A stretch of 64,000 nt of DNA from contig CM075994.1 in assembly GCA_038087875.1 (NCBI GenBank), forward strand, positions 1,428,001 to 1,492,000, written 5' to 3'. The DNA is from Malacoraja senta. Its lineage: Eukaryota. Below the pieces are notes generated by a model. That model was not told where the DNA came from and did no database searches. It worked only from the letters and a program-made list of their open reading frames with translations. This document shows positions 2,798 to 38,070 of this stretch, one piece after another; within the stretch, counting starts at the first letter, position 1; each line of letters opens with the position of its first letter. The translations under genes and the position numbers were made by a program.

Positions 2798-2937
2798 AGA
2801 GGGAGAGAGGGAGAGAGGGAGAGGGGGAGAGGGGGAGGGGGAGAGAGGGGGAGAGGGGGAGAGGGGGAGAGGGGGGGAGAGGGAGAGGGAGAGGGAGAGG
2901 GAGAGGGAGAGGGAGAGGGAGAGAGAGAGAGAGAGAG
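2798..2937. repeat. (GA)n/(GGGAGA)n microsatellite
   Basis: Direct sequence. Confidence 0.95.
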
Positions 2938-8200
<5,263 letters not shown>

Positions 8201-8289
8201 GCGCAAGCAGGCAGGCATGCAGGATAATCTGAGGAAGATAAAAAAGGACTGTGCAGTTCAATGGTTGGCCTTCAGTTAGCAGAGGGAGA

Positions 8290-10965
8290 CAAAGGGGAGG
8301 CTGGGGAAATGATTGGAATTTGGCTCCTAGTGCACCTCCACTCCCTATCAGCCCCCGGGTCAAACTCCACCCACACCACAGTCCGAGCCCTAGTCAGTGG
8401 TGACAGGAATTTACCCAAGTTTACCCAAGGCAGAGTCAGGAACCGACAGTGCATCCACCTCAGGCGTCTGACCCAAGAGAAAGGAGAAGCCCCAGTTTAC
8501 AGACCCGTAGCATGGCATACTAGGTCCAGTCTAGAGACCAGGCAGCGAAGGACAGGAGGAAAGGAGGTCACACAGTTGGGACTGTAGAAGGGAGCACTTG
8601 GCTGAGAAGCCAAACCTAGAGCAACAAGAGAAGGTGCTGAAATAGACGGAATAAGAAAGCATTCTCCAGGCGCCAATATCCTGTCAGAAGGGTCCCTAAC
8701 CCCAGAGCCCTAATACCTCCTCCACCCAACGAACACAACGGCGAAACAGCCATGAATAATGTGTGGCTGCCGTGGAAACCAAATGAGATGATGGCAATTT
8801 TGTTGGGAGTGCATAATAAGAATCCACAAGGTTTCATTGAATTTTTAAGAACAACGATATCTGTATATCACTCAGATTCCAGACCATTTATGGGCACTAC
8901 TTCAGCAAGTATTAACAGCAATTGAGCATACCAGATTCTTGGTTCACTTAACCTATGACAACCACACAGCCTTAGGGGCGGCGCACCCAGGGGCAGGTAA
9001 CAATGAGGATCGATAACAGCTTATGTTGACAGCCGTGGGCCTCACTCTCAGCAGCCAATCGATATATCGAAGGTTTTGGGTATGAAACCAGAGGAAGGAG
9101 AGGCTGCAGAAGATTTTTCTGGAAAGGTTGAAAACCATCTACGGCAACCAGTCAGGTGACACTCAGTATCAGCAAGGAAATGACTCGCCACAGTTTTGTG
9201 CTATGCTTATGAACTGCTTGCCTTCCAGCGTCGCAATGGCTATTAAAACCAATAATATGGACTGGTCAGAGTCTTCATCAGCCCGCATGTCAAGAGCTGT
9301 GAGAGCCTTTTCGAAAGTCTATACTATTGGAGACAGGGAAGGCCAGGTAAAGGTAATAAAACGAATATGTGATGAGAGAAACGAGAGAAGGGCTATCTGC
9401 AAATATTACATGGATTCCCAATATGCTTTTGGAGTGGTTCATGATTACGGACAATTAAAGGAAGATCGGGGGTTTCTAACCTCTTCAGGGACAGCGATAT
9501 CTCACACAAATTGGTTTCTAATTCGCTACAGACCATTCAGTTACCCAGTCAGCATGCTGTTATCAAAGTTAGAACCCATACTACAGGCCAAAGCCCCCAT
9601 AGACATAGGAAATTGCCTTGCCGACGGGGCAGCTAAGAAAGCTTCTAGGAGTTACCAAATTGTTGAGCCCCACATGATGAGGCAGACTAATAGTTTGAAT
9701 CCTTATTTTGCTATATGGTTAGGAATATGCGACTGATTACCGGACTGACTAACTGAAGGACGTTTAAATTGAGTGAATAGTTGTTTAAGCCAATTAGTAA
9801 GAAATGAGCTTTTTGTGAGCCTTTGCATATTCCAGATAAATTAAAATGAGGCGATTCGTCCTACTATGCATCCTGATGCTACTACAGATGGAGGGAAATG
9901 AAGGAAAAATTCAACGATGTGTCCCGGGACAAACAAGCAGAGTCTTTCACCTCTGCAAAGGAGATGTGGTACAGTGCAATGGCCCAGATGCCTTTGGATC
10001 TCGGAGCGTCACCAAGATTGACTATTGCAATGGGATACTGCGTCAGCCCGATCGGTGGGTAGACTTAGATAACCGAAACCTGTGGGAATTACCCTGTTGG
10101 TTTCAGGAGTGCAAATTTGACTTTTTCTGCAGACGGAATCCCTTGGAAGACAACTCGGCAAAGAAACATTTGTATGATGGACTATGCTATCGAGAAGCAT
10201 TAGAGGTCTACCCTTGTTTACAGGAGAAAGAAACTGGGGAAAAACACGGGAAAAATGGGCATTGGAAAAAACTGACTCGAACATGTTTATACAAGCCCAT
10301 AATGAACTATTTGATGAAGGACAAATTGTGTGTTACCTTGCTATGAAATCAGTTAGTTGCCTATTGCAGTGTCTACAGAGTGCGGGAGGACTGAACGGTT
10401 AGTAAGGTGTCAAGTTGAGAAGTCAGTTCCGGTCGAAACTGTCACCTAATTTTTGCCACTACCTCGTGACAATGAGCATTCTTACCCGGGTTTGAGGACA
10501 AGACTTATGCGGTGTACTATCAGAAATAGGTCTGTTCTCTTTACAGAATAGATATGCCTTATACTATCTGTTGGCCCGTGAGGGAGGGGTGTGTGCTATT
10601 GTGAAAGACAGATGTATGGTCAGGTCAGGTCAGAACTAGTAACATCACCAAACAGCAAAATGACATTATTACCCTGCTGAATGGGATGAAGGAGGGTATT
10701 GAATGGGGAGACTGGGGATTTAGGGGATTATATAATTGGATCATTAGTATGGCCATATATGCAGCAACATGTGGTTTTGTGTTTGTTCGTGGGAATTGCT
10801 TTCGTTAAATGTATTATTGCTAGACTAATGACATCCCTGGGTAATGTGGAAACTGGAGAAGATATTATTGAGATATTATTGCAACATCTAGAAGAAGACA
10901 TTCCAATGTTGAAGGATGAGGTAGTTGAAAGTATGGTAAATGCGCAGGTTGAGAAGGAATTGTTA
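8290..10965 (+). mobile_element. Internally deleted epsilon-like endogenous retrovirus remnant, copy 1 (gag CA - RNase H - env leader - env TM)
   Basis: Gag-like PWKPNE...DISKV...GEAAEDFLERL; RNase H YMDSQYAFGVVHDYGQL...GNCLADGAAK; env TM immunosuppressive-domain-like LQNRYALYYLLAREGG.C (about 10543-10600) followed by a hydrophobic anchor. No LTRs seen. Confidence 0.85.
9846..10346 (+). CDS. 166-aa Cys-rich ORF with signal-peptide-like N-terminus; probably frameshifted N-terminal part of ERV env (copy 1)
   Basis: ATG start, hydrophobic MRRFVLLCILMLL, many Cys; sits between RNase H and env TM; repeated at 21483-21983 with one amino-acid difference. Confidence 0.5.
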   Translation: MRRFVLLCILMLLQMEGNEGKIQRCVPGQTSRVFHLCKGDVVQCNGPDAFGSRSVTKIDYCNGILRQPDRWVDLDNRNLWELPCWFQECKFDFFCRRNPLEDNSAKKHLYDGLCYREALEVYPCLQEKETGEKHGKNGHWKKLTRTCLYKPIMNYLMKDKLCVTLL

Positions 10966-11108
10966 GCACTGTGGAGGAGGTGGGTACACGCCCCTAGTAA
11001 CGTTACTCCCTGCCCTGCTCACAGGTCTGTGACCAACCTGGAGTACATCAGTGTCAGTACAGTGGAGGAGGTCGGTACACGCCGCTAGTAACCTTACTCC
11101 CCACCCTG

Positions 11109-11199
11109 ACAGCTATGAACGATTATTCATCACGGAGCCACATTGTCTTTCAGCTGCACATGGAAGGGAGTGACTCTGCCAACGGCCTGGTGTGTAGAT
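11109..11199 (+). pseudogene. KIFC1: Displaced kinesin-14 switch-I exon fragment (copy 1)
   Basis: ACA GCT ATG AAC GAT TAT TCA TCA CGG AGC CAC... = TAMNDYSSRSHIVFQLHMEGSDSANGLVCR, ending at a GTGAGT donor (11200). Preceded by the same exon-end repeats found at 25640-25800. Confidence 0.85.
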
Positions 11200-11334
11200 G
11201 TGAGTAATTGCACCATTGTGAGTGGCTGGCACCGACGTGCAGGGCACCCTGGCCCAGTGTGGCTGCCGTCCTGTCTGTGTCTGTGTTTGGCCGGGGTCCT
11301 GTGAGGTAACAGTCCCACCTGGTTGAGCCACTGT

Positions 11335-11885
11335 GGGTGACACAAAGCTGGGTGCAGTGTGAACTGTGAGGAGGATGCTATGAGAATGCACGGTGACTTG
11401 GACAGGTTGGGGGAGTGGGCAGATTCATGGCAGATGAAATTTAATGCGGTTAAATGTGAGGTTGTCCACTTTGGTGGCAAAAACAGGAAGGCAGAAAGGC
11501 AGATTACTATCTAAATGGCATCAAGTTGGGAAAATAGGAAGTACAACGGGATCTGGGGGGTCCTTGTTCATCAGTCTATGAAAGTAAGCATGCAGGTACA
11601 GCAGGCAGTGAAGAAACCGAATGGCATGTTGCCCTTTATAACAAGAGGAATCGAATACAGGAGCAAAGATTTCCTTCTGCAGTTGTACAAGGCCCTAGTG
11701 ACACCACACCTGGAGTATTGTGTGCAGTTTTGGTTCCCCAATTTGAGGAAGGACATTCTTGCTATTGAGGGAGTGCAGCGTAGGTTTACAAGGTTAATTC
11801 CAGGGATGACTGGAGTGTCATATGCGGCTAGGATTGTACACTCTGGAGTTTAGAAGGATGAGAGGAGATCTCATTTAGAAGGATG
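11335..11885 (+). mobile_element. CR1 ORF2 internal fragment without 3' tail (copy 1)
   Basis: WQMKFNAVKCEVVHFG, PHLEYCVQFW. Confidence 0.9.
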
Positions 11886-12195
11886 AGAGTGGCACAGACT
11901 GGCTGAACAGATACGGACCACTCCTTTTGCTACGGCACTTACGCCTGCGGAAATCATATATGGTCGACGTTTACGGACGCCATGGAATGACCATGCCCCC
12001 GCAGCGGTCCATTTCCACCAGATGACTGAGGAAATGACATCCTATTTATTAACTTTAACCGGTGCTTTGCGAACTTCTCATTCACAGGTCAGGGCTGCAT
12101 ATGATGTGGCGCCAGCGCTCAAAGTTCCATCTAATATTGAGCCAGGTTGCTACGTGCTGGTCAGGAACTGGACGCATAAGCACTTGGACCCAATT
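11886..12195 (+). mobile_element. Retroviral integrase C-terminal fragment (copy 1)
   Basis: IRTTP...LTPAEIIYGR motif typical of retroviral/Gypsy integrase core end. Confidence 0.75.
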
Positions 12196-12608
12196 CGGTG
12201 ATCCCAATTTCAAAACCCTGCTGGTATATCACAAGAAAAGGTGCCATATGAAGAAAATGCGAAAAAAGTGCTAAATAACATAAATAATACAAAAAACAGG
12301 ATTTAAAGATACTGTACGTGCAGTGAGCTTCCGTGGATGTTAAATGCAATTAGCTCCGCCCCTTACAAAGTAATATTGCAAAAAAAACATCGGACTAAGC
12401 AGGATATTATGTAAACAGAAAAAAACAGAACAAAGACTGTAAATAATTTCCTCTAAGAGGGTTACATTTATTCTTATAGCTTGCCTCTAAGTGGGTATTT
12501 ACTATTTAAATACCCTATTTAAATTAAAAAATCTTGCTTATTGATATTCGTGTGTTAAATACAAAACCGGTTGAAGGGGTTAATTGAAATATCCAGCATT
12601 CTCACCGG

Positions 12609-12612
<4 letters not shown>

Positions 12613-12692
<80 letters not shown>
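12613..12692. repeat. (CT)n microsatellite
   Basis: Direct sequence. Confidence 0.95.
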
Positions 12693-12698
<6 letters not shown>

Positions 12699-15600
12699 CT
12701 TTTTCAAAAACTTTATTCAACACACTCAATAATACATCACATCAATACATAATCAAAAGATACATTATATCAAACCACATCATTATAGTACAACATTACA
12801 TTCATTATTTATTATACTCTCCACCCCACGCGGTGACCATCGCCCACGGAAGGCATCCAGAGTCCCCGTGGACACCGCATATTCCCGCTCCAGGGACACC
12901 CGTGCACGGACGTACGCCCGGAAGAGGGGCAGGCAGCCAACTCTCGCCTCACCATCGACCGCCCGCTGCCTGGACCCACGAATGGCCATCTTAACCAGGC
13001 CCAGGAGCAAACCGACAGGGAGGTCCCAACCCCCCACTTGACTCTCCCCACACCCTACTTTATGCCCACACACTAGAATCGTGGGACTAAAATGCAACCA
13101 AAACTTAAGGAACAACCCCTTCAGATATTGGTACAGGGGCAGTAACCTCTCACACTCCATGTATACGTGGAACACAGTTTCTTCCTCGCCACAGAAAATA
13201 CACGCGGCGGACGAACCCGTGAACCGACTCAAAAGTTTATTACAAACCACCGCTCCATGCAACAGTCTCCACCCCAGGTCCCCAATGTAAAGGGGGACAA
13301 CTCCCGTATAGAAGGACCCCCACCAGGGACCCCCCCCCACCATCAGGTGGTAACACCGTCCGCCACGGTGTGTCAGGACGGGAAACAAAGGCAAGGAGGT
13401 GCAGAATGTGCAGGAACATCCTATACAATGTGCGTCTCTTCGCATCACGAAACGGTATGCTGATCATCTCAGAAAGGCGGCTCAGGTTGTGTAGAGCCGG
13501 TTCCCGAGATATATCCCGGAGCCTTGGCCCGATGAGCAGATCTGACGGAGCAATTGAAAGCTCATCCAGAACCACTCTAGGCACTCGCCTCTCCTCGACA
13601 CCCGCCATGACTGGGCGAGGACCGGCCACTCCCGCAGCCGCACCACCCCCCTCCCCTCGTAGAACAACACGCTGACTGAAAACAACCAAATTCCTCACTC
13701 TGATCACATCCCGGTAGAAAACAGGCAAACCCCTTAGGGCGGGTCTACTGATGCCCGCCACCGGGAGCCGCGAGACCCCCCCTAGGCAACGACCACGACG
13801 AAAAAAATACGTGGCCAGAGCGTGCCATCTGGGGGGGCTCTCTACATACATATACCTCCGCAGAGTCCTGAGACGGAGAGCCGCCACCTGGGTACGCACG
13901 CATACCAAGGACTGGCCGCCCTCCTCTAACGGGAGACTCAGGACCGCTGCAGAGACCCAGTGCTTCCTATTCCCCCAGAAGAAATCTACCAGCTTCTTCT
14001 GAAGAGCATTTACAAATATGGAAGGTGGGACAAGAGTAGCCAGCCGGTACCATAACATAGAGGCCACCAGCTGGTTTATGACCAGCACCCTCCCCCGGAA
14101 AGAAAGAACTCCAAGCAAGCCCGACCAGCGCCCCAGCCGGGCAACCACCTTCGTCTCCAACTCCTGCCAGTTCGCCGGCCAAGCATCCTCAGGTAAACCC
14201 CCAGATAGAGGAGATGTGTAGTGCTCCACACATACCTTGCCATCTCCTCCGGCAGGGAATCCACTGCCACTGACCCACTAAAAGACCAGAACACTTACTC
14301 CAGTTAATCCTTGCAGAAGATGCAGCTGAGAAAATCTCCTGGCAGTCACGCATCCTCCGCAGGTCACCAGGATCAGTGAACATAAGGAGGACATCATCTG
14401 CATACGCTGAAAGAACCACCTCCAACCCCGGCCCAGGTAGGCCAGGCCTGTCAACCTCCTCCGAAGAAGACACAGGAACGGCTCCACACAGACCGAGTAC
14501 AACTGACCCGACATGGGGCACCCCTGACGGACCCCCCTCCCAAACTGAAAGGGAGCCAACAACGCACCATTAACCTTCACCAGGCACTCCGCTGCAGCGT
14601 ACAAAAGCCGGACCCGGGCCACAAAATGCGGTCCAAATCCAAACGCTTGCAACGTCCCGAATAGGTAATCATGCTCTACCCTATCAAAAGCCTTCTCCTG
14701 ATCAAGAGACAGAAAAGCAGCTGACTGACCAGTACCCTGAACTATATGAATTAGGTCCCTAACCAGGTGGATGTTATCCTGAATGGACCTGCCAGGGACC
14801 GTATAGGACTGGTCAGGATGAATTATTTGAGACAGCACAGGGCCCAGGCGATTTGCCATTGCCCGTGCAAATACTTTATACTCTGTACATAGGAGAGATA
14901 CCGGCCTCCAGTTCTTCAACACGCGGAGTTTGCCCTTCTTGGGCAGCAAGACAACAACTGCCCTACGCCACGATAGGGGCATCGCCCGGCCGCCAAACTC
15001 TCCCCCAGCACCAACATGTAATCACCCCCCAGGATATCCCAGAAAGCTCTGACAAACTCCACCGTCAACCCATCCATCCCGGGTGACTTACCCTTCCTGA
15101 GCTGAAACAATGCACAAGTCACCTCCTCCAAAGATAAGGGGCCATCAAGAAGATCGGCCACCTCCCTATCAATAGTCGGTATACCCTCCCACAATTCCTT
15201 CTGAGCCTCCCCGTTATACCCCCCTCCGGAGAACAGGGACCCATAAAATGACCTGACCTCCTCACTGATCCTCTCCGGATCAGTGACTGAGGATCCATCA
15301 TCTGCGAGCAGCTCTACGAGCTGCTTGCAGGCTCCCCTCCCTTTCTCCAAAGAGAAAAAGAAAGGCGACGCTCGGTCCAGATCTTGCATCATCTGTACCC
15401 GCGCCCTCACGAAAGCGCCTCGGGACCGCTCAAGCAGCAGATTCCTCAAGGCTTCCTTCTTCTCCTGAAACTCTCCCCATTCACAGGAGTCCTCACCATC
15501 CCGACCCAGGCGAGACTCTGCACCCTGTAGCTCCCTCTCAAGCCTCGCGACCGCTGAGTCCCTCCGTCCTGTCGACCCCCACGTATACTCCTTACAAAAT

Positions 15601-18600
15601 AGACGAATGTGAGCCTTCCCCCACATCCCACCACTGCCTAAGGGAAGAGAAGCACCTCCGCCCCTCTCTCCACTTCCCCCAAAACCTACTGAATGACTCC
15701 CGGAAACACCGATCCTCCAGCAACCGGTTGTTAAAGTGCCAGTACGCGGACCCAGCCCTAGCGCGCGCCGGATTGAATTCCACACGCACCAGACAGTGAT
15801 CCGAGCATGGCACCACCCGCATTGAAGCCTCTGAGACACGGGCAACAAACGCTCGGGAAATATATATTCTGTCAATACGGGAACCACCACCCTCATACCT
15901 CCGCGAAAAAGCATTGGAATCCGGATGGAGGTTCCGCCATGCATCAACCAACTCAAAGGATTCAATCATCCCTCTCAACTTCTTCGCTACAGCAGGGGCA
16001 CACTGAGTACCAGAACGATCTCCCGCCTCAAGTGTGCAATTAAAGTCCCCACCAAGGAAAACACACTCTCCCCTATCAATAGTGCTCAACAGAGCAGTCA
16101 CCTCCTGAATTAGGCCAGCCTGCATCGTACCGGAGCTAGGGGCATACACGTTAATGAAATGCAACGGCATGCCATCCAAGCTCACTGCCAGATGGAGCAA
16201 ACGACCTGGCACAACTTCATTCACTTTTAAAATCGTTGGCAGAAAATTCTGGGCCAACAGAAAGGCCACCCCACTCGAATTTGAGCTGAGATGGCTCATG
16301 TAAACCCCCCCTTCCCACTCCAGTCTCCAGGTAGGTTCATCACTAACAACTGTGTGCGTCTCCTGCAGAAAACACACTGCAAATCTCCCCTCTTTAAGGC
16401 CTGATAAAAGCTGAAATCTACTAGTGGATTTACTAGTAGCGTGGATAGGGGAGAACCAGTGGATGTGGTGTATCTGGACTTCCAGAAGGCTTTCGACAAG
16501 GTCCCACATAAGAGATTAGTATACAAACTTAAAGCACATGGCATTGGGGGTTCAGTATTGATGTGGATAGAGAACTGGCTGGCAAACAGGAAGCAAAGAG
16601 TAGGAGTAAACGGGTCCTTTTCACAATGGCAGGCAGTGACTAGTGGGGTACCGCAAGGCTCAGTGCTGGGACCCCAGCTATTTACAATATATATTAATGA
16701 CCTGGATGAGGGAATTGAAGGCAATATCTCCAAGTTTGCGGATGACACTAAGCTGGGGGGCAGTGTTAGCTGTGAGGAGGATGCTAGGAGACTGCAAGGT
16801 GACTTGGATAGGCTGGGTGAGTGGGCAAATGTTTGGCAGATGCAGTATAATGTGGATAAATGTGAGGTTATCCATTTTGGTGGCAAAAACAGGAAAGCAG
16901 ACTATTTTCTAAATGGTGGCCGACTAGGAAAAGGGGAGATGCAGCGAGACCTGGGTATCATGGTACACCAGTCATTGAAAGTAGGCATGCAGGTGCAGCA
17001 GGCAGTGAAGAAAGCGAATGGTATGTTAGCTTTCATAGCAAAAGGATTTGAGTATAGGAGCAGGGAGGTTCTACTGCAGTTGTACAGGGTCTTGGTGAGA
17101 CCACACCTGGAGTATTGCGTACAGTTTTGGTCTCCAAATCTGAGGAAGGACATTATTGCCATAGAGGGAGTGCAGAGAAGGTTCACCAGACTGATTCCTG
17201 GGATGTCAGGACTGTCTTATGAAGAAAGACTGGATAGACTTGGTTTATACTCACTAGAATTTAGGAGATTGAGAGGGGATCTTATAGAAACTTACAAAAT
17301 TCTTAAGGGGTTGGACAGGCTAGATGCAGGAAGATTGCTCCCGATGTTGGGGAAGTCCAGGACAAGGGGTCACAGCTTAAGGATAAGGGGGAAATCCTTT
17401 AAAACCGAGATGAGAAGAACTTTTTTCACACAGAGAGTGGTGAATCTCTGGAACTCTCTGCCACAGAGGGTAGTCGAGGCCAGTTCATTGGCTATATTTA
17501 AGAGGGAGCTAGATGTGGCCCTTGTGGCTAAAGGGATCAGAGGGTATGGAGAGAAGGCAGGTACGGGATACTGAGTTGGATGATCAGCCATGATCATATT
17601 GAATGGCGGTGCAGGCTCGAAGGGCCGAATGGCCTACTCCTGCACCTAATTTCTATGTTTCTATGTTTCTAAAACTCGATCTACTCCCGTTTAAGTTTAA
17701 TGTTGCGACGGTGAATGTAAAGGCACACTTCATTAAACCCCCTCAGTCCCCGTAGACACAACAAATTTCTCTCTGAGTAACACCAAAAAGTCCCCAAACT
17801 GCCCCACCTCTAAGTCAGTAAGATCACTCTCCCTGCTGCCAAGAATATCCTCGAGAGTCGGAATCAAACCAGGCAGATCATCCCACCGCCTACCAGCAGC
17901 ATCCAATCTTGTTCTTGCGGAGCGGCTTGTTCTGAGAAACTCTCGAACCACCTTTATCTCACAATCAAGAGCCTCGGCCTTGGAGTCTGGGCACTCGGCC
18001 AACGCACTTGCACCTGCACCATCAGACTCCACAACACAACGTTCAAGGGCTCTTTCTGTAACTGAACGCCCAGAGCTCTCCAAAAGCTCTCCACCCCCAC
18101 TACCCAAACTTTCCGATTCACCCTCCCCTCCTCCTGCAAGACACCACCCCCAGGATCACTGCCAGGTAAGGGCCCCTAAACCCCCAACTGCAACAAGCAT
18201 CCCCCTGACTGGCTTGGCCCCTGCACGCTACCCTCACCCTCCACGCCTTGGCCTGGGGAAGCAAAAACACTAGGCTCCCCCAGGGCCTGGGATACACTGA
18301 CACCCCTTGAACCTAAAGGGACATCACCACCCAAACTATCCCCGACCTCCACACCACCTATAGCATCCCCACCACTAGCAACACCCAGAGGCTCGCCTCT
18401 TACTTTTAGCCTCTCCCCTTCCACCTCATCCGGCGATGCAGCACACCCCCCATTACCACCACTGGCACTGATGTGCAGCATAGACTGGAACACCACAGCC
18501 CCCGACCCACCCCCCTCAGGCTGACTCTGCTCATCCTCCATCTCAGGGGCCCCCCTACCAGGGGCACATACCCCATCCTCTGGCGTTCCATCACCCTCAA

Positions 18601-19325
18601 GAGGCCTCTGAAACGAGGGGACCTCCTCCGACCCAGAGGACACCCCCCCAGGGGAGCTCACCTCACCACCCGATGAGATAACTCCATCGGAAGACCCCTG
18701 AAATGAAGGGACAGCCACCCGCCCAGAGGACACAACTCCAGCGGAATCAACCCCCTCACCTGCCCTAATTTTCGCCTCACGCCCTTCCTCTTCCTCGCCA
18801 GGCCTATTCCTTTTCACCCCACTAGCATGCGGCAGTACGGTGACCTCCATAAAGGAAGGTCTTCCACCCCCTCCCTACCCCCATCCACTATACCCCCCGC
18901 ACCCTTTACCAACCCTTCCCCCGTCTGAGCGATCTCATCGCCTTGCTGGGCCACATCAAGCACACTCTGGACCTCACTAGAACTAACACGCATATTTTTA
19001 CTCTCCGGATGGCCCTTTCCCTTCTTCTTCCTCCCCTTCTTCACCTCCCACTTCCCCTCCCCGTCTTCATCCTCCCCCTCTCCACCCTCTCCCTCCCCCT
19101 CACCATTAGCCACCACCACCTCCACAGTCTCAGGACGCAGGGGCCTGAGGCCTTCCCCGCCCCGGGTCCCCAAGGCAGAACTTTCAGACCCAGATGGCCT
19201 ATCACTTCCGCCCCGGATCCCCGAGGTAGAGCTAGCCGCCCTAGCCAGGTCAGCAGTGCCGCCCCCCGCGCCACCGAGGCATGATGTACCACCCCGGATG
19301 GGCCAGCATTGCAATCCTGGGCCAC
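12693..19325 (-). mobile_element. Tx1-clade L1 retrotransposon (ORF1 3' part plus frameshifted ORF2), interrupted by a CR1 and truncated at the gap
   Basis: ORF2 starts at 17733 (MKCAFTFTVATLNLNG). It contains FLQETH, NVYAP, GGDFN, SRIDRIY, SDH, KSPGMDGL, KNWRPVSLL, LDQEKAFDRV, GVRQGCP, AYADD and the C-terminal CIFCGEEETVFHVYMEC knuckle. AATAAA plus an A-rich tail lie at 12693-12718. Confidence 0.92.
16420..17671 (+). mobile_element. 5'-truncated young CR1 inserted in the Tx1 ORF2; open RT C-terminal frame 16441-17574
   Basis: YLDFQKAFDKV, GVPQGSVLGP, KFADD; 3' UTR ending in (TTTCTATG)n. Confidence 0.95.
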
Positions 19326-19525
19326 NNNNNNNNNNNNNNNNNNNNNNNNNNNNNNNNNNNNNNNNNNNNNNNNNNNNNNNNNNNNNNNNNNNNNNNNNNN
19401 NNNNNNNNNNNNNNNNNNNNNNNNNNNNNNNNNNNNNNNNNNNNNNNNNNNNNNNNNNNNNNNNNNNNNNNNNNNNNNNNNNNNNNNNNNNNNNNNNNNN
19501 NNNNNNNNNNNNNNNNNNNNNNNNN
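19326..19525. other. Assembly gap (200 N)
   Basis: Run of n. Confidence 1.
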
Positions 19526-19544
19526 GTATTAATATGATCGTTGA

Positions 19545-19940
19545 TTCCGCTAGTGTTTCAGGTAGGTTTTGCTCTTTATAAGCATATGTATACATTTTTT
19601 GTAATCGTGGAGTAACTATATCATAAAAGATTTATAAAATTCATTACTGAATCCGTCTGGTCCTGGTGTTTTTCCATTTTTTAGTGTTTTTATTGTGTCT
19701 TCTATCTCCTTAGAAGTAATTTGTGCTCCCAGTTCCTCTTGTTCCCTGCGTTCTAATTGTGGTAGATTACAATTATCTAAAAATTCTGAGATTTTATTAT
19801 TGTCTATTGACGTTTTAGATGTGTATAGATTCTGGTAAAATTGAGCAAATCTTTTATTAATATCCTTGGGTAGTGTTAATACTTCCCCTCTATCTGATTT
19901 AATCTTTAATATTGCATTCTCTTTTTCCCGTTTTTTAAGT
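19545..19940 (-). mobile_element. L1 ORF2 internal fragment
   Basis: INKRFAQFYQNLYTS...LKNGKTPGPDGFSNEFYK. Confidence 0.85.
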
Positions 19941-22595
19941 ATGATTGGAATTTGGCTCCTAGTGCACCTCCACTTCCCTATCAGCCCCCGGGTCAAACTC
20001 CACCCACACCACAGTCCGAGCCCTAGTCAGTGGTGACAGGAATTTACCCAAGTTTACCCAAGGCAGAGTCAGGAACCGACAGTGCATCCACCTCAGGCGT
20101 CTGACCCAAGAGAAAGGAGAAGCCCCAGTTTACAGACCCCGTAGCATGGCATACTAGGTCCCAGTCTAGAGACCAGGCGCAAGAAGGACAGGAGGAAAGG
20201 AGGTCACACAGTTGGGACTGTAGAAGGGAGCACTTGGCTGAGAAAGCCAAACCTAGAGCAACAAGAGAAGGTGCTGAAATAGACGGAATAAGAAAGCATT
20301 CTCCAGGCGCCAATATCCTGTCAGAAGGGTCCCTAACCCCAGAGCCCTAATACCTCCTCCACCCAACGAACACAACGGCGAAACAGCCATGAATAATGTG
20401 TGGCTGCCGTGGAAACCAAATGAGATGATGGCAATTTTGTTGGGAGTGCATAATAAGAATCCACAAGGTTTCATTGAATTTTTAAGAACAACGATATCTG
20501 TATATCACTCAGATTCCAGACATTTATGGGCACTACTTCAGCAAGTATTAACAGCAATTGAGCATACCAGATTCTTGGTTCACTTAACCTATGACAACCA
20601 CACAGCCTTAGAGGCGGCGCACCCAGGGGCAGGTAACAATGAGGATCGATAACAGCTTATGTTGACAGCCGTGGGCCTCACTCTCCAGCAGCCAATCGAT
20701 ATATCGAAGGTTTTGGGTATGAAACCAGAGGAAGGAGAGGCTGCAGAAGATTTTCTGGAAAGGTTGAAAACCATCTACGGCAACCAGTCAGGTGACACTC
20801 AGTATCAGCAAGGAAATGACTCGCCACAGTTTTGTGCTATGCTTATGAACTGCTTGCCTTCCAGCGTCGCAATGGCTATTAAAACCAATAATATGGACTG
20901 GTCAGAGTCTTCATCAGCCCGCATGTCAAGAGCTGTGAGAGCCTTTTCGAAAGTCTATACTATTGGAGACAGGGAAGGCCAGGTAAAGGTAATAAAACGA
21001 ATATGTGATGAGAGAAACGAGAGAAGGGCTATCTGCAAATATTACATGGATTCCCAATATGCTTTTGGAGTGGTTCATGATTACGGACAATTAAGGAAGA
21101 ATCGGGGGTTTCTAACCTCTTCAGGGACAGCGATATCTCACACAAATTGGTTTCTAATTCGCTACAGACCATTCAGTTACCCAGTCAGCATGCTGTTATC
21201 AAAGTTAGAACCCATACTACAGGCCAAAGCCCCCATAGACATAGGAAATTGCCTTGCCGACGGGGCAGCTAAGAAAGCTTCTAGGAGTTACCAAATTGTT
21301 GAGCCCCACATGATGAGGCAGACTAATAGTTTTGAATCCTTATTTTGCTATATGGTTAGGAATATGCGACTGATTACCGGACTGACTAACTGAAGGACGT
21401 TTAATTGAGTGAATAGTTGTTTAAGCCAATTAAGTAAGAAATGAGCTTTTTGTGAGCCTTTGCATATTCCAGATAAATTAAAATGAGGCGATTCGTCCTA
21501 CTATGCATCCTGATGCTACTACAGATGGAGGGAAATGAAGGAAAAATTCAACGATGTGTCCCGGGACAAACAAGCAGAGTCTTTCACCTCTGCAAAGGAG
21601 ATGTGGTACAGTGCAATGGCCCAGATGCCTTTGGATCTCGGAGCGTCACCAAGATTGACTATTGCAATGGGATACTGCGTCAGCCCGATCGGTGGGTAGA
21701 CTTAGATAACCGAAACCTGTGGGAATTACCCTGTTGGTTTCAGGAGTGCAAATTTGACTTTTTCTGCAGACGGAATCCCTTGGAAGACAACTCGGCAAAG
21801 AAACATTTGTATGATGGACTATGCTATCGAGAAGCATTAGAGGTCTACCCTTGTTTACAGGAGAAAGAACATGGGGAAAAACACGGGAAAAATGGGCATT
21901 GGAAAAAACTGACTCGAACATGTTTATACAAGCCCATAATGAACTATTTGATGAAGGACAAATTGTGTGTTACCTTGCTATGAAATCAGTTAGTTGCCTA
22001 TTTGCAGTGTCTACAGAGTGCGGGAGGACTGAACGGTTAGTAAGGTGTCAAGTTGAGAAGTCAGTTCCGGTCGAAACTGTCACCTAATTTTTGCCACTAC
22101 CTCGTGACAATGAGCATTCTTACCCGGGTTATGAGGACAAGACTTATGCGGTGTACTATCAGAAATAGGTCTGTTCTCTTTACAGAATAGATATGCCTTA
22201 TACTATCTGTTGGCCCGTGAGGGAGGGTTGTGTGCTATTGTGAAAGACAGATGTATGGTCAGGTCAGGTCAGAACTAGTAACATCACCAAACAGCAAAAT
22301 GACATTATTACCCTGCTGAATGGGATGAAGGAGGGTATTGAATGGGGAGACTGGGGATTTAGGGGATTATATAATTGGATCATTAGTATGGCCATATATG
22401 CAGCAACAGTGGTTTTGTGTTTGTTCGTGGGAATTGCTTTCGTTAAATGTATTATTGCTAGACTAATGACATCCCTGGGTAATGTGGAAACTGGTGAGAA
22501 GATATTATTGCAACATCTAGAAGAAGACATTCCAATGTTGAAGGATGAGGTAGTTGAAAGTATGGTAAATGCGCAGGTTGAGAAGGAATTGTTAG
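19941..22595 (+). mobile_element. Internally deleted epsilon-like ERV remnant, copy 2
   Basis: Near-identical to 8290-10965. Gag-RNase H fused frame 20389-21393 has a TAA at 20650-20652; LQNRYALYYLLAREGGLCAIVKDRC at about 22180-22255; TM anchor 22325-22480. Confidence 0.85.
21483..21983 (+). CDS. 166-aa Cys-rich signal-peptide ORF, env N-terminal-like (copy 2)
   Basis: As for 9846-10346. Confidence 0.5.
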   Translation: MRRFVLLCILMLLQMEGNEGKIQRCVPGQTSRVFHLCKGDVVQCNGPDAFGSRSVTKIDYCNGILRQPDRWVDLDNRNLWELPCWFQECKFDFFCRRNPLEDNSAKKHLYDGLCYREALEVYPCLQEKEHGEKHGKNGHWKKLTRTCLYKPIMNYLMKDKLCVTLL

Positions 22596-22737
22596 CACTG
22601 TGGAGGAGGTGGGTACACGCCCCTAGTAACGTTACTCCCTGCCCTGCTCACAGGTCTGTGACCAACCTGGAGTACATCAGTGTCAGTACAGTGGAGGAGG
22701 TCGGTACACGCCGCTAGTAACCTTACTCCCCACCCTG

Positions 22738-22828
22738 ACAGCTATGAACGATTATTCATCACGGAGCCACATTGTCTTTCAGCTGCACATGGAAGGGAGT
22801 GACTCTGCCAACGGCCTGGTGTGTAGAT
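22738..22828 (+). pseudogene. KIFC1: Displaced kinesin-14 switch-I exon fragment (copy 2)
   Basis: TAMNDYSSRSHIVFQLHMEG..., GTGAGT donor at 22829. Confidence 0.85.
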
Positions 22829-22964
22829 GTGAGTAATTGCACCATTGTGAGTGGCTGGCACCGACGTGCAGGGCACCCTGGCCCAGTGTGGCTGCCGTCC
22901 TGTCTGTGTCTGTGTTTGGCCGGGGTCCTGTGAGGTAACAGTCCCACCTGGTTGAGCCACTGTG

Positions 22965-23505
22965 GGTGACACAAAGCTGGGTGCAGTGTGAACTGTGAGG
23001 AGGATGCTATGAGAATGCACGGTGACTTGGACAGGTTGGGGGAGTGGGCAGATTCATGGCAGATGAAATTTAATGCGGTTAAATGTGAGGTTGTCCACTT
23101 TGGTGGCAAAAACAGGAAGGCAGATTGCTATCTAAATGGCATCAAGTTGGGAAAAGGGGAAGTACAACGGGATCTGGGGGGTCCTTGTTCATCAGTCTAT
23201 GAAAGTAAGCATGCAGATACAGGAGGCAGTGAAGAAACCGAATGGCATGTTGGCCTTTATAACAAGAGGAATCGAATATAGGAGCAAAGATGTCCTTCTG
23301 CAGTTGTACAAAGCCCTAGTGACACCACACCTGGAGTATTGTGTGCAGTTTTGGTCTCCTAATTTGAGGAAGGACATTCTTGCTATTGAGGGAGTGCAGA
23401 GTAGGTTTACAAGGTTAATTCCCGGGATGACTGGACTGTCATATGCGGCTAGGATTGTACACTCTGAAGTTTAGAATGATGAGAGGGGATCTCATTTAGA
23501 AGGAT
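22965..23505 (+). mobile_element. CR1 ORF2 internal fragment (copy 2)
   Basis: ORFs 22988-23281 and 23136-23474. Confidence 0.9.
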
Positions 23506-23845
23506 GAGAGTGGCACAGACTGGCTTAACATGGTTAAAACTGCTTCCTGTATCTCTTTTTCCGATACGGACCACTCCTTTTGGTACGGCACGACTTACGC
23601 CTGCGGAAATCATATATGGTCGATGTTTACGGACGCCATGGAATGACCATGTCCCCGCAGCGGTCCATTACCACCAGATAACTGAGGAAATGACATCCTA
23701 TGTGTTAACTTTAACCGGTGCTTTGCGAACTTCTCATTCACAGGGCAGGGCTGCATATGGTGTGGCGCCAGCGCTCAAAGTTCCATCTAATATTGAGCCC
23801 TGGCTACGTGCTGGTCAGGAACTGGACGCATAAGCACTTGGACCC
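23506..23845 (+). mobile_element. Retroviral integrase C-terminal fragment (copy 2)
   Basis: QTGLTWLKLLPVSLFPIRTTP...LTPAEIIYGR. Confidence 0.8.
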
Positions 23846-24039
23846 AATTCGGTGATCCCAATTTCAAAACCCTGCTGGTATATCACAAGAAAAAGTGCCA
23901 TATGAAGAAAATACGAAGAAAGTGCTAAATAACATAAATAATACAAAAAACAGGATTTAAAGATACTGTACGTGCAGCCCACCCCCTGGTGGGAAATTTA
24001 CAGTGAACTTCCGTGGATGTTAATTGCAATTAGCTCCGC

Positions 24040-25103
24040 CCCTTACAAAGTAATATTGCCTGTGTAGGCAAAAGTAACGTGGCAATGATGACATGCTTTA
24101 ATGTCATAGACTCTAAAACTCTTGTGGAAACGGTGACACAACTAAGGCCATCCAACTGCTGCTTTGATGCTTTACCTACCAACTTCTTTAAGAATGTTTT
24201 TGACTGCCTAGCAATAGACATACTGCAAATAGTTAACAGCTCTCTTCAATCAGGCAATTTCCCAAAAGTCTTGAAAACTGCAGTTATTAAACCGCTTTTA
24301 AAAAAGCGGAGCCTAGATGCCTCTATTATTAACAACTATAGACCAATATCAAACCTACCTTTCATAAGTAAAATCATTGAGAAAGTTGTCCTCCAGCAAC
24401 TTAATCACTTCCTGGTTCAACTGGCTGCTACGACAACTTCCAGTCAGGATTTCGACCTCTTCATAGCACTGAGACCGCCCTTATTAATGTTGTAGACGAC
24501 ATCCATCTTAACACAGACTCTGGCAAAGTTTCAATATTAATGCTATTAGACCTCAGTGCTGCATTCGACACTCAATACTTTTGGACAGGTTGGAAAAATG
24601 GGTGGGGCTTTCAGGCACCGTCTTAAGTTGGTTCAGGTCATATCTGCAAGATGGGAACTATTTTGTTTCCATTGGTGACTTTGTATCAGAACCAACCAAC
24701 ATGACGTGTGGAGTCCCGCAAGGTTCGATCTTAGGGCCCTCTTTATTCAACATCTACATGCTCCCACTAGGGCAAATCATGCGAAATAATAATATTCACA
24801 ACCACTGCTATGCCGATGACACTCAAATGTATGTAGCGCTATCACCAAATGACTATCGCCCCATAGATCTGCTGTGCCAGTGCATTGAGCAAGTCAAAGA
24901 CTGGATGTGCCAAAATTTCCTCCAACTAAATAAGGACAAAACGGAGATAATTGTTTTTGGTGCTAAAAAAGAAAGGCCTATAGTAACCCAACACCTTCAC
25001 TCTCTGTCCCTGAAAACTTCAAACAAAGCCAGAAATCTCGGGGTTATTATGGATTCAGATTTACATTTCGACAGTCACATCAAATCAGTAACAAAATCGG
25101 CCA
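24040..25103 (+). mobile_element. L2 LINE RT fragment without tail
   Basis: NYRPISNLPFISKIIEK, LLDLSAAFDT, CGVPQGSILGP, CYADDTQ, NFLQLNKDKTE. Confidence 0.9.
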
Positions 25104-25139
25104 GTTGCAACAAAAAAAATCGGAATAAACAGGATATTA

Positions 25140-25329
25140 TGTAAACAGAAAAAACAGAACAAAGTCTGTAAATAATTTCCTCTAACAGGGTTACATTTCT
25201 TCTTATAGCTTGCCTCCAAGTTGGGTGTTTACTATTTAAATACCCTCTTTAAATTAAGACATCTTGCTTAATGATATTCGTAAGTTAAATACAGAACCGG
25301 TTAAAGACCGTCAGGCTTGAAGGGGTTAA
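25140..25329 (+). mobile_element. Possible piggyBac-type terminal fragment (also about 12410-12583)
   Basis: AT-rich segment ending ...CTTGAAGGGG|TTAA, the piggyBac terminal/target signature; no partner left end found. Confidence 0.4.
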
Positions 25330-25371
25330 TTAAAATCTCCAGCATTCTCACCGGTAGCACGAGAGCTAGCT

Positions 25372-25633
<262 letters not shown>

Positions 25634-25639
25634 TGGACC

Positions 25640-25800
25640 TGTGGGCAGGGTGGGGAGTAACCTTGCTAGGGGGCGTGTACCCACCTCCACTGTACTGACA
25701 CTGATGTACTCCAGGTTGGTCACGGACCTGTGGGCAAGGTGGGGAGTAACGTTACTAGGGGCGTGTACCCACCTCCTCCACTGTGCCGACACTGATGTAC
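25640..25800 (-). repeat. About 88-bp tandem repeat built from the kinesin exon 3' end and donor
   Basis: Repeated ACCAACCTGGAGTACATCAGTGTC...GGAGGTGGGTACACGCCCC. Confidence 0.85.
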
Positions 25801-25994
25801 TCCAGGTTGGTGAAGTACAGCTGCTCACTCTTGTTACTCCGTTGCTTGATCTCGTACACAACTGCCTTCTGTGATTTGGTTACCAACAGGTCACGGATGG
25901 TCTCTTTGTAGATCTCCAGAAAGCTGGCCGTGAACTTGTACTGAAACCACAGCACACAAACAGTGCTGGTGTAGCTCCCACAATGCTCACACTG

Positions 25995-26280
25995 GGCAGC
26001 ACCCAGAGCCCAGAGCCCACAGAAGGGGCTGCAAAAGGGCCCAGAGCCCAGAGAAGGGGCTGCAACAGGGTCCAGAGGCAGAGGCTGCCACAACGCCCAG
26101 AGCCCAGAGGCAAGGGCCGCCACAGGGCCCAGAGCCCAGAGAAGGGGCTGCCACAGGGCCCACACCCCAGAGAAGGGGCTGTTACAGGGCTCAGAGCCCA
26201 GAGAAGGGGCTGCCACAGGGTCCAGAGGCAGAGGCTGCCACAGGGCCCGGAGCCCAGAGGCAAGGGCTGCCACAGGGCTT
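25995..26280. repeat. Intronic minisatellite (about 27-29 bp; agggcccagagcccagagaaggggctgccac)
   Basis: Direct sequence. Confidence 0.9.
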
Positions 26281-26977
26281 TGTGTGAGGTGCAGCTTGTG
26301 TGTGCAGCCAGGCGGTGGTGCCAGGAACAAGCTACCAGTGGGAAGGCTGTGTCCAAGGCAGAGGGGCAGACAGGGACATCATGTAACAGCTGCACCAGGC
26401 CACTCCAGGCCTCTCCAGGCCTGACAGCAGTGAGAGCTTGCACTTAGCCAGGTACCAATCTCAGGGCCACAGAGTTGGAGATGTCTGTTTACACAGGAAC
26501 AGTGGGTTGGGGGAAAGCTAGAAGGCTCCTACCAGTTGTGAAGTGTTTTGTGTCTAGACTCCTGCCTGCCTGCCTGCTGGCCACACTGCAGATACTCACC
26601 AGCCGTCCCATGGTCTTGAGTCTACGCGCAGTGACGTAGATCTGATCGCCTGCGCGTGGAATCATCCCCTAGGTGTCACACGTCAGCTCGTCTGGCCTCT
26701 CCATGGTGTAGGTCTTGCCACTGCCTGTTTGACCGTAGGCAAAGATACAAACGTTGTAGCCATCCAAGGCAGACTGGGAGAGAAAGGCAGGCAGCGTCAC
26801 GACAGGAGAGTCCGTCCATTCATAATGCCCACAACCTCTTTGATGCCCATGTCAACCATTCCAACACAGTGGTGACAAGACAGCATCCGTTACCCACCCA
26901 CCTCACCAATGGTGGGACGGGCTCATAGACCAGGGTGTGTCTACGTTACTGTCATGCCCATCCACTGTGGAAGGGTG

Positions 26978-27212
26978 ACAATAAATGCTGCAGTAACTCA
27001 GCAGGTCAGACAGCATCTCTCGGGAGAAGGAACGGGTGATGTTTCAGGTCGAGACCCTTCTTCTGAAGACCATTCTTCATCTGAAGAGGGGTCTCGAGCT
27101 GAAATGTCACCATTCCTTCTCTCCAGAGACGCAGCCCTTCCCGCTGAGTTACTCCAGCTTTCTGTGTCTATCTTGGGTTTAAACCAGCATCAATCTGCAG
27201 TTCCTTCTTCCC
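26978..27212 (+). mobile_element. Penelope-derived inverted-pLTR mini-element with 13-bp TSD
   Basis: Inverted arms around 27060-27080; CTGTGGAAGGGTG duplicated at 26965-26977 and 27213-27225; degenerate CTGAAGA...GAAA motif at 27081-27108. Confidence 0.75.
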
Positions 27213-27769
27213 CTGTGGAAGGGTGTCTACGGACACTGAGCAATATTAGACAGAAGCCTTGAACAGGCGTAGCAGGGGGATCCACACAGAGTGAGTGGAT
27301 CAGTGATGTGTACACCAGACTAACCTGCATCAGCTGAGAGATGTCTTCAAACACTTCTTCCTGCTTTGCCACTGGCTGGAAAATGTGGTCAAAACTGAAG
27401 TCGTGTTTCACCGCATCTTTCCGGTTGTTCCCAGTGCGAGACTATAAATAATTTGAGGAAAGTTCAGTTTGCAGCTGAACATTGAATGGCGTCATCAGTT
27501 AGGGCAGGCTCAGCACGAGGTCTTGATCAAATCCCATTACACTATATGCACCATGTTTACATGTAGGAACAACCGAGACCGACTCCTTCCTCAGCCTGAC
27601 CACCACAGGAGATCATGCAGACAGTGTGATAGAGCCCTGTGCCAACCGAACTCCCCTACACACCGAAACGGAGTCCTCCCTCAGCCTGAACACCACAGGA
27701 GACGCCATTGAATGGCGGTGCTGGTTCAAAGGGCAGAATGGCCTACTCCTGCACCTATTGTCTATTGAG

Positions 27770-28030
27770 ACAATGCAGCCAGTGTTATAGAGGCCTGTGT
27801 CACCAGATGTCCCCTAGACACCACCTCACCACAAGGTAATGGAGTCAAGAGCACGCAGCCAGTGTGTTAGAGACCTGGGCCACCAGAAATGCACTTGACA
27901 CCATCCCACTAGTCACCACCTCACCACCAGTTAATGGAGTCAGGAACACCGCAGATAGTGTGGGAGCCCTGTCCCACTATAACACTGTACACCACCAGTT
28001 AATAGAGTCAGCACCGTGCACAGTGTGATA
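27770..28030. repeat. Intronic minisatellite split by the CR1 (continues 32365-32530)
   Basis: Repeated ccctgtcccactataacactg..caccaccagttaatggagtcagg on both sides of the CR1. Confidence 0.75.
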
Positions 28031-31000: not shown

Positions 31001-32360
31001 CCTTTTTGATTTTTGCCCAGATTTGTCTGCCTGCCACTTTTACTTTTCACCTTGCTACCTATTGCTTCTACCCTCATTTACACCCCTCTGTCTCTCTGCT
31101 CACACATTTAAGAAACCCTTTCCCTTTAACTCCATCCTCGACTATCACCATTTGACACCCCACCCCCATTATTCAGTTAAAAACCACCCGTGTAGCAGTG
31201 GCAACCTGCCTGCCAGAATGCTAGTCCCCCACCTGGTAAGATGCAATCCCTCCCTTTTGTACAGTTCCCCTTTACTCCAAAACAGATCCCAGTGATCTAA
31301 AATCTAAATCCCTGCCCCTTGCACCAGTTCCTCAGCCACACATTCATGTACCATATCTCCCTGTTCCTGCTCTCGCCTGCACGAGGGAACTGGAATCAAA
31401 CAGGAGATAACAACCCTGGAGGTCCTGCTTTTCAACATTTTCCGAGCTCCTAAAGTCACGCTGCAGAATATTCATCCCCTTTTTCCGACATCGTTTGTGC
31501 CGGACATGCACTACCACTTCCGGCTGTTCACCTTGCCCTTGAGGATTTTCTGCACTCTGTCCGTGACATCCTGGATCCTGGCACCAGGAAGGCAGCACAC
31601 CATCCTCGAATCCCGTCTATTGCCGGCAAACCCCCTGTCCGTACCTCTAACAATGGAGTCTCCAACTACATGGCATTGCCTGACGTTGGCCTCTTTTGGT
31701 TTTGGCTCAACAGCCCTTTTTGCTTCGCAAGCCTGTCCGCCGCTCAGTGTAATAACGTCTTCTGTCCCGACGGCTTCTAAGTGGGTGAACCTGTTCACAA
31801 GAGGTACAACACCCGGGGACGTTGCCTTCCCATGCTTCCCTCCCTTTCTCACCGTTCACCCACCTTATCTCTTCCAGGACCTTAGGTGTAACAATCTTAC
31901 TGTAGGACTTGTCGAGGAATGACTCAGTTTCTCGGACGAACCTGAGGTCATCCACTTGCTTCTCCAGTTCCCCAACACGGTCCTTCAGGAGCTGTACCTG
32001 GATGCACTGTCTCACATTTGTAGCTGCCAGAGGCACCAGCAGTGTCCTTGACCTTCCACATACTGCAAGCATCACATTGAATCAGCTTGCCTTGACATCT
32101 CCTTCTTTCGTCTCTCCCTCTGCAGCGTTTTGTGTAGCCTCCTCCTCAGCCTCCACGCCGAAGACTCGCACTTTTCTCTCAGGGCACTTCCCTCACAAGG
32201 CCGCTTCCTAAGAGCTGTCTTGCTTATTGACTGATAAATTGCCTAATTTACCAATTCACAAACCAAATTCCTCAGTTTTAAACTGTTTTCCCCCTCTGAC
32301 TGACTTCTAACCCACCTCCCGCTCAGGGCTAGAGCCACTCAGTGTTTTCTCCTGCTTCTC
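28030..32360 (-). mobile_element. Near full-length CR1 (zinc-finger/leucine-zipper plus esterase ORF1; APE-RT ORF2)
   Basis: ORF1 VVGDSIVRG, CCLPGARIQDV (31344-32075). ORF2 CLNARSIRNK, GITETW, MGDFN, SDHN; RT frame 28132-29871 is open (579 aa). Tail (TTTCTATG)n. Confidence 0.95.
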
Positions 32361-32704
32361 TTTGTTGAGACCTGTCCCACTATAACACTGCACCACCAGT
32401 TAATGGAGTCAGGACCGTGCATAGTGTGGACGAGCCCTGGTCCCCACTATAACAACTGGACACCACCACCAGTGAATGGAGTCAGACTATGCACAGCGTG
32501 ATACTACTCACTATAACACTGCACACCACCACCACCCACCCGGGCACAAGGCCACCAGTCAGCGGCAACCTTTTGATGTCTCTGTGGCCTTTCAACAAAA
32601 GCCTGGCCTGGGTCTTCGTGGCACCCCTGCACATTACTGAACAAGATGCTGATGAGGCCACTGTTAGGAAAGTCATGTGTTCAGTTTTGGTCAGTCTGCC
32701 ATTA

Positions 32705-37530: not shown

Positions 37531-37699
37531 TATCACTCTATGAGCAGACTGATGTGTGAAATGCATGGACTTACCTCCTGCTCCTTTGTTAGGGTGATCA
37601 CCTTCTCATCACTGGGCAGGAACTGAATGTGCATCATATCATTGTGCCTCTCCCGTCCAGAAGCGGCGAACACTGGCAGATAACATGGATATACCCATG

Positions 37700-38070
37700 T
37701 AAGAGGCAAGGCAGGGAGAACATCACTGGCTGCAGAGAGCACACAGCGCGGAGTAAACACCGGGGCCAAGAGGCAAGGAAAACGTCACTGGCTGTAACAG
37801 CACACAGCACTGGGAAACGCAGGGCCAAGAGTAAGGAGAACGTCACTGGCTGTACACAGCACACAGCACTGGGCAAACGCCACCACAGCACTGGACAAAC
37901 ACCGGGGCCAAGGGGCAAGGCAGAGGACACAGCACTTGGCAAACGGCAGGGCCAAGAGGCAAGGAGAACGTCACTGGCTGTACACAGCACTGGGCAACGC
38001 CAACACAGCTCTGGGCAAATGGCAGGCCAAGAGGCAAGGCAGAGACACAGCACTGGGCAAACGCCAGGGG
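37700..38070. repeat. Intronic minisatellite next to the kinesin acceptor
   Basis: Repeated cacagcactgggcaaacg..gggccaagaggcaaggagaacgtcactggctg. Confidence 0.85.

Follow-up and report, generated by a model that had tools for sequence, protein, structure and literature searches.

In a 64,000-nucleotide stretch of the genome of Malacoraja senta (GCA_038087875.1, contig CM075994.1, positions 1,428,001 to 1,492,000; the window), a mosaic of retroviral, kinesin and long interspersed element (LINE) fragments occurs twice, at 8202-12612 and 19941-25372. We read this block, with a probability of roughly 70%, as a locally scrambled skate pseudogene locus in which an endogenous retrovirus (ERV) remnant within a dead KIFC1-like gene was cut down, flipped and copied. 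This reading is carried by the identities of the modules, the continuity of the kinesin piece with the adjacent gene, inverted microsatellites at the borders, a flank common to both copies and a sharp step in their divergence. As a unit, the block does nothing.

Each copy carries, in this order, a gag-RNase H piece, env, a kinesin exon piece, a CR1-type LINE piece, an integrase piece and an AT-rich repeat ending in TTAA (Table 1). In a masked self-comparison, positions 8309-12379 of copy 1 aligned with 19941-24059 of copy 2 at 96.4% over 4144 columns, followed by a second aligned segment (12376-12608 and 25105-25354). A scaffold gap of 200 N separates the copies. An earlier description made from the letters alone (the sequence-only reading) had proposed this duplicate patchwork and its modules, which stand, and had listed an L2 piece among those of the repeated mosaic; that piece is confined to copy 2. 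It had also started copy 1 at 8290; the true start is at about 8202, where gag N-terminal residues, with weak matches, reach the (GA)n tract. Position 19941 was rejected as a unit start because copy 1 gag extends further 5′. The GAAGGGG/TTAA motif proposed as the block end is indeed present at 12580 and 25326, but the likeness passes TTAA: 23 of the 25 following bases agree between the copies before (TC)n begins in both. With this flank common to both copies, TTAA was ruled out as a unit end.

Kinesin piece and the adjacent KIFC1-like pseudogene

Six collinear minus-strand exons from 42067 to 25767 match residues 187-498 of protein P0003 (tblastn) and are 81-100% identical to skate proteins. 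In-frame stops at ~40350 and 26669 and a frameshift near 37650 disable the gene, which is a KIFC1 (kinesin-14) pseudogene. The kinesin piece of the block, whose best match is likewise KIFC1, covers P0003 residues 513-542 on the plus strand, corresponding to the next exon without its first ~14 codons; the missing 5′ part had been noticed in the sequence-only reading. Its closest named proteins are from skates, at 79-88% identity (8 matches of 30 candidates). Between gene and block, no part of the kinesin is doubled except repeat units. Since the gene halts at residue 498 and the piece resumes at 513, the exon is a continuation of the gene 3 kb away and not a copy of it, a point absent from the earlier description.

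The break itself falls within an array of 91-bp units (25633-25813 and 22594-22737), a tandem duplication of a 46-bp exon tail and a 45-bp GT-AG stretch. After its last exon, the pseudogene holds two units and is broken 7-8 bases into a third, at the microsatellite, while the block resumes ~33 bases into a unit. Units on either side are 85-93% alike and share residues differing from the listed full-length skate paralogs. Because a like unit occurs in a translated annotated paralog of Amblyraja radiata (P0008), the array predates the breakage of the locus. KIFC1-like genes are a small paralog family in skates; at least two KIFC1-like genes are annotated in each of Leucoraja erinacea and A. radiata, some being partial or low-quality entries on small contigs.

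The (GA)n tract on the left and the (TC)n tracts on the right of the block are reverse complements, an arrangement that suggests a local inversion of the block between them. Flipped back, the block would carry on from the gene and its (GA)n with gag-RNase H-env, the remainder of the repeat unit, the exon and then its intron, all read in one direction. Gene continuity and the shared flank thus support a locally rearranged duplication, the second of the two options in the sequence-only reading.

Retroviral modules, borders and divergence of the copies

Class I retroviral gag and pol homology is present in the block. Neither gag, RNase H and the integrase piece nor the 5′ env frame was assigned to a Pfam family; the first three were identified by tblastn searches with retrieved proteins. 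A catshark Gag-Pol (P0009, whose precomputed domains include PF18697) aligned at 42-50% to the capsid (residues 1 to ~200, from 20428 on), RNase H (residues 787-885, 21043-21339) and integrase C-terminal pieces (residues 942-1052, 23513-23821). According to these positions, ~590 residues are lost between gag and RNase H, and protease and reverse transcriptase are gone. Capsid and RNase H of copy 2 lie in one open frame (20653-21393); among the best 150 of 244 representatives, as read from the table, most matched one half of this frame and none spanned both at high identity. The alignment bears out the direct fusion of gag to RNase H and the placement of integrase after env, against the gag-pol-env order, as earlier described; the absence of long terminal repeats (LTRs) also holds, with a terminal direct repeat in neither copy. 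The env call rests on frame anatomy and a weak TLV_coat match (E 5e-4, 19.3 bits) below the curated cut-off of 22.5. For the 5′ env frame, all Atlas scores were <0.8, and for the fused env-kinesin frame (22244-22714) 0 of 15 homolog candidates were scored, a result without bearing on absence.

Among known systems, the block resembles internally deleted class I (gamma/epsilon-like) ERVs of sharks and rays in its shared match to one catshark Gag-Pol, the weak, sub-cut-off TLV_coat match of its env and its membership of an ERV family that is multi-copy, with several deletion forms, in three organisms. Unlike these, it has no LTRs, its env runs into host sequence and its integrase lies behind env, a host exon and a LINE piece.

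The borders show no inverted ends, no target-site duplications and no Helitron 3′ end. In the window, an inverted copy of the TTAA end is absent (AAGGGGTTAA at 12574 and 25320 only, TTAACCCCTT nowhere), and other TTAACCC sites are unlike this end. When the first 300 bp of copy 1 were compared with its last 300 bp, no inverted match scored above 15, a value reached by 173 of 200 shuffles; the left end of copy 2 is concealed. No TTAA stands at the left borders, and the longest end-to-end direct repeats (5 and 7 bp) lie off the borders. Helitrons end 3′ in CTRR before a T; neither copy has this motif in its final ~120 bp. No target-site duplication was found at the borders, where the sequence-only reading had proposed to look for TTAA or A/TC...CTRR/T. 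No intact parent of a captured piece was seen either: the adjacent gene is without this exon, and another parent elsewhere is possible. The clade names CR1, L1, L2 and Tx1 and the term piggyBac-like are provisional labels; the AT-rich repeat, whose TTAA/CCCCTT end resembles piggyBac, is at most a candidate member of that superfamily.

Divergence between the copies is strikingly uneven. The 5′ part, from gag to the first 150 bp of the CR1-type piece, holds 5 substitutions in 3161 positions (0.16%), four of them beside indels, whereas the 3′ part from there on holds 51 in 1084 (4.7%; Fisher p 2e-25), with the step near 11500 in copy 1. An 8-bp tandem duplication in copy 1 (11488-11495) lies right at this step. 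Most indels of the 5′ part are single-base (17/20) or repeat a neighbor (14/20) and are spread over the two copies (9 and 11), which suggests consensus errors. The 3′ 1.1 kb contains a 1050-bp insertion and indels of 32, 26 and 16 bp. Both CR1-type pieces, of which that in copy 2 lacks a tail as earlier noted, carry the same 14-bp internal deletion, and both meet the integrase piece at the same joint, marked by a 16-nt CR1 repeat; the mosaic therefore predates the 5% split, and the 3′ part likely exists in two real copies, an old duplicate. A pure assembly artefact was rejected as the only cause on account of the 3′ divergence. The 5′ identity may stem from gene conversion, re-duplication or an assembly effect.

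Public sequencing runs and competing explanations

We compared 19526-25372, as contigs, with four of 23 listed public runs: X1 and X2 (organism A), X3 (organism B) and X7 (organism C). No listed run contains half of the words (best share 0.37), and the listing includes no RNA run; the other 19 runs, at ≤0.24, provide no evidence. The compared range ends short of the joint between (TC)n and the gene and of both copy 1 flanks, and contig depth does not equal copy number. The kinesin bin (22646-22840) was the shallowest of 30 in X2, X3 and X7 and the fourth shallowest in X1, which speaks against the spread of a kinesin exon as a mobile unit. ERV, LINE and AT-rich repeat bins were deeper, the ERV 2-130x in X2, X3 and X7, and the AT-rich repeat is multi-copy in other organisms. 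Several amplified deletion forms of the ERV family exist in related organisms; deep contigs in X2, X3 and X7 skip 96-175 bases of gag or env. The LINE piece at 19526-19940 reached a depth of 3e4-5e5, has a loose end at 19940 and extends into the gap. X3 and X7 also contain a form that skips the L2-type piece, and 4 letters at its joint can be assigned to either side.

At the kinesin joints, a 321-nt contig of X2 (depth 5.85) covers 22687-22993 across the exon deletion, with 12 other letters and 14 gap letters, and overlaps the CR1-type piece by 27 letters; in X1, a contig of 148 nt at a depth of 139 overlaps it by 30. In X3, the exon is ~90% alike and the contig departs at 22974, eight letters into the CR1-type piece, pointing to a short sequence shared at the intron-CR1 joint. 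The exon contig of X7, also ~90% alike, matches only from 22737 and has 89 other letters before. As far as these contigs tell, organism A carries the same kinesin joints, and B and C show the unjoined form.

Several observations weigh against a scrambled pseudogene locus as the full account. No P0003 residues after 542 were found by tblastn in the window, including left of the block. Each copy displays one of the two diagnostic flanks, a LINE and the gap concealing the other, so that the proposed inversion combines copy 1's left flank with copy 2's right flank. At the intron-CR1 joint, the overlaps of the X1 and X2 contigs are slightly too short for the 31-letter bridging rule, and neither the env-kinesin nor the CR1-integrase joint is represented in the 32 run pieces displayed out of 265,361. 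In X1, other bins are shallower than the kinesin bin (618), and the kinesin-intron and env-tail contigs have depths of 139 and 151 versus 45-49 in three other listed contigs, a weak hint of about three copies. Copies elsewhere in the genome may exist, the evidence comprising the 64-kb window and four runs, and the integrase piece may derive from a second provirus copy downstream.

A first alternative is one locus assembled twice: two haplotypes would overlap at the gap, each contig ending in a haplotype-specific LINE. The 3.2 kb of near identity, broken mostly by single-base indels, fits such an origin, and the copies can be merged into a single orderly locus that runs from the left flank through (GA)n, block and (TC)n to the gene. 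The 3′ 1.1 kb, with its 4.7% substitutions, 1050-bp insertion and three further indels, diverges far above the 5′ part and beyond allelic levels, and the X1 depth weakly hints at more than one copy in a relative. Gaps between duplicated pairs, as found here, are a mark of false duplication (PMC9516828); a near-identical pair on one scaffold with likeness through all element ends also resembles the cases there, or a segmental duplication with gene conversion, but the sharp step to ~5% is unexplained by plain allelic overlap. We consider a double assembly unlikely. Alternatively, the block could truly lie in the gene's orientation, its flip being a misjoin at (GA)n/(TC)n and its history otherwise unchanged. 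Both borders are reverse-complement microsatellites of 80-260 bp, and the assembly appears error-prone here; yet the two contigs that flank the gap agree in placing (TC)n to the right of the same block, and a 257-bp tract is short for long reads. We consider a misjoin very unlikely.

The sequence-only reading had favored a gene-capturing element, in the form of a composite DNA transposon (a Pack-TIR with a piggyBac-like end, or a Helitron-like unit) that took up the kinesin exon and is mobile as a whole. In its favor, a repeat ending in TTAA lies at the right end of both copies, and two X1 contigs are about threefold deep. Pack-TIRs carry a copied host piece between transposon ends, and single-copy ones arise near their parent by gap filling with short shared sequences (PMC8277862); the block shares with them a host piece beside a DNA-transposon-like end, a nearby parent and short shared joints. 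It differs in that its host piece does not lie between two ends: no second end, inverted repeat, target-site duplication or CTRR/T was detected, the flank past TTAA is shared, and the parent gene lost the piece at the very point where the block resumes it rather than being copied. Multicopy Pack-TIRs, moreover, have distinct target-site duplications and lie far from their parent (PMC8277862), and the kinesin bin is the shallowest in three of four runs. We therefore regard a capturing transposon as highly improbable. Even less probable is retroviral transduction, in which template switches among provirus, kinesin and LINE RNAs would have built the mosaic before integration. All modules lie on one strand, the gag-RNase H-env order is retained, and deletion forms of the ERV family are deep in other organisms, but the ends lack an LTR-like direct repeat, env stops short of any polypurine tract, intron sequence has survived, and the kinesin piece adjoins the exact break of its parent gene. 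Finally, the microsatellite-bounded retrovirus-kinesin chimera could be a low-copy unit in skates, flipped and recopied via its inverted (GA)n/(TC)n ends or with the aid of a piggyBac-like end, with its 5′ 3.2 kb kept homogeneous and a few copies in more than one species. This is quite unlikely, somewhat less so than a misjoin; dispersed copies with their own flanks would represent a rare case of a vertebrate host exon traveling in a microsatellite-bounded, retrovirus-derived unit.

Proposed history and surroundings of the block

The inversion, the order of events and the cause of the 5′ identity are suggested by the arrangement of the pseudogene locus, for which we propose the following course. 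A class I ERV piece would have come to lie, oriented like the gene, in the array of 91-bp units of a KIFC1-like paralog. Subsequent deletions, several of them at short stretches of common sequence, would have removed the LTRs, protease-reverse transcriptase, the integrase core and the start of the next kinesin exon, as well as the DNA between later downstream insertions (CR1-type piece, integrase piece, TTAA-ended repeat), thus leaving modules without ends side by side. The block was presumably inverted between (GA)n and (TC)n, so that the continuing exon would face the opposite way. At least the 3′ 1.1 kb would have been duplicated long ago and now differs by ~5%, and the identity of the 5′ 3.2 kb may reflect a recent gene conversion or re-duplication, or else a doubling of this part by the assembler at the gap. 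LINEs would finally have struck single copies: an L1-like one in copy 2 gag, an L2-type one in copy 2 and a Tx1-type one in the (TC)n of copy 1.

Table 1. Features of the duplicated block and its flanks in the window (clade names are assumed labels; LINE domains include reverse transcriptase, RT).
Feature	Positions	Strand	Evidence and remarks
(GA)n-type microsatellite, left border of copy 1	7944-8201	+	TRF; inverted relative to right-hand (TC)n
Copy 1 ERV gag piece, N-terminal region to capsid end	8202-9385	+	tblastn with P0018, P0019; stops and frameshifts; no LTR before; 8261-8340 weak matches only
Copy 1 RNase H piece, joined to gag	9407-9700	+	P0009 787-882, 48%, E 1e-19
Copy 1 env leader and env, 3′ end cut	9701-10964	+	99.7% like copy 2
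Copy 1 kinesin stretch (91-bp exon-tail/intron units, exon piece 11109-11199, intron stump)	10965-11337	+	Identical to copy 2 over 377 bp
Copy 1 CR1-type LINE piece	11338-11889	+	0% to ~5% divergence step near 11500; 16-nt CR1 repeat at integrase joint
Copy 1 ERV integrase C-terminal piece	11890-12195	+	P0009 958-1053, 50%, E 6e-24
Copy 1 AT-rich dispersed repeat to GAAGGGG/TTAA (12580-12583)	12196-12612	+	25-bp flank common with copy 2; form without L2-type piece also in X3, X7
(TC)n right of copy 1	12613-12693	+	TRF
Tx1-type LINE, A-rich tail at (TC)n	12694-19325	-	Endonuclease, RT, zf-RVT matches; CR1-type insert ~16432-17690
200-N scaffold gap	19326-19525		
High-copy LINE ORF2 piece (L1-like)	19526-19940	-	Open reading frame 19616-20026; 5′-truncated at 19940; interrupts copy 2 gag; no Pfam match
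Copy 2 ERV gag piece	19941-21020	+	P0018 169-438, 47%, E 1e-69
Copy 2 RNase H piece	21043-21339	+	P0009
Copy 2 env leader and env	21340-22593	+	Signal-like start 21483; transmembrane part with immunosuppressive-type motif 22162-22254
Copy 2 KIFC1 exon-tail/intron repeat, 1.6 units of 91 bp	22594-22737	+	85-93% like adjacent gene's units
Copy 2 KIFC1-like exon piece, switch I, 5′ part deleted	22738-22828	+	P0003 513-542
Copy 2 kinesin intron stump	22829-22966	+	GTGAGT donor
Copy 2 CR1-type piece, no tail	22967-23510	+	88% to CR1-type copy at 43.8-44.4 kb; loose ends 23445/23446 in runs
Copy 2 ERV integrase C-terminal piece	23511-23850	+	P0009 942-1052, 48%, E 2e-25
Copy 2 AT-rich dispersed repeat, interrupted by L2-type piece	23851-25372	+	GAAGGGG/TTAA 25326-25329; shared flank to 25354
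L2-type LINE RT piece, copy 2 only	24060-25109	+	RVT_1 E 2e-16; 4 letters fit either joint side; skipped form in X3, X7
(TC)n joining copy 2 to broken kinesin gene	25374-25630	+	TRF
KIFC1-like pseudogene	25631-42067	-	Exons 42067-41906, 40346-40176, ~37700-37575, 27441-27316, 26782-26600, 25940-25767

The surroundings are rich in LINEs. The Tx1-type LINE conceals the right flank of copy 1. Its tail at (TC)n and its endonuclease, RT and zf-RVT matches resemble Kibi-like Tx1 LINEs, which target (TC)n (PMC4494074); it is a neighbor of the block and no part of it. Another LINE (2936-7943) sits between (GA)n tracts at 2798-2935 and 7944-8201; since each of these two LINEs adjoins a GA/TC tract, microsatellites of one kind seem to have received two insertions within 10 kb. 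One kinesin intron holds two CR1-type copies (28059-31118 and 32735-35772) that are 91.6% alike, the first with a 623-codon open frame; a CR1-type piece 93.6% alike lies within the Tx1-type LINE. An apparently young LINE frame of 943 codons with endonuclease and RT domains is open at 59837-62668. On the minus strand at 44835-45527, a 230-codon stretch with Ser/Lys/Ala-rich repeats lies within another decayed frame. It may resemble the nucleolar phosphoprotein NOLC1; this region gave no Pfam match, and 44838-45527 gave no usable Atlas match. Decayed frames at ~500-2390 may resemble a hAT/SCAN-type transposase. Rfam at the gathering score and ARAGORN returned 0 matches.

In the literature seen on skate ERVs, skate KIFC1 duplication and microsatellite-bounded inversions, which included few subscription papers and no supplements, we found no description of this locus. 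As read here, the block is of little importance, since every module is damaged and the kinesin, one of several skate paralogs, is itself a pseudogene. The block offers a small, clean example of how a retroviral remnant, short-homology deletions and inverted microsatellites would take a duplicate gene apart. It also cautions that, next to a scaffold gap, debris of this sort looks like a gene-capturing transposon.

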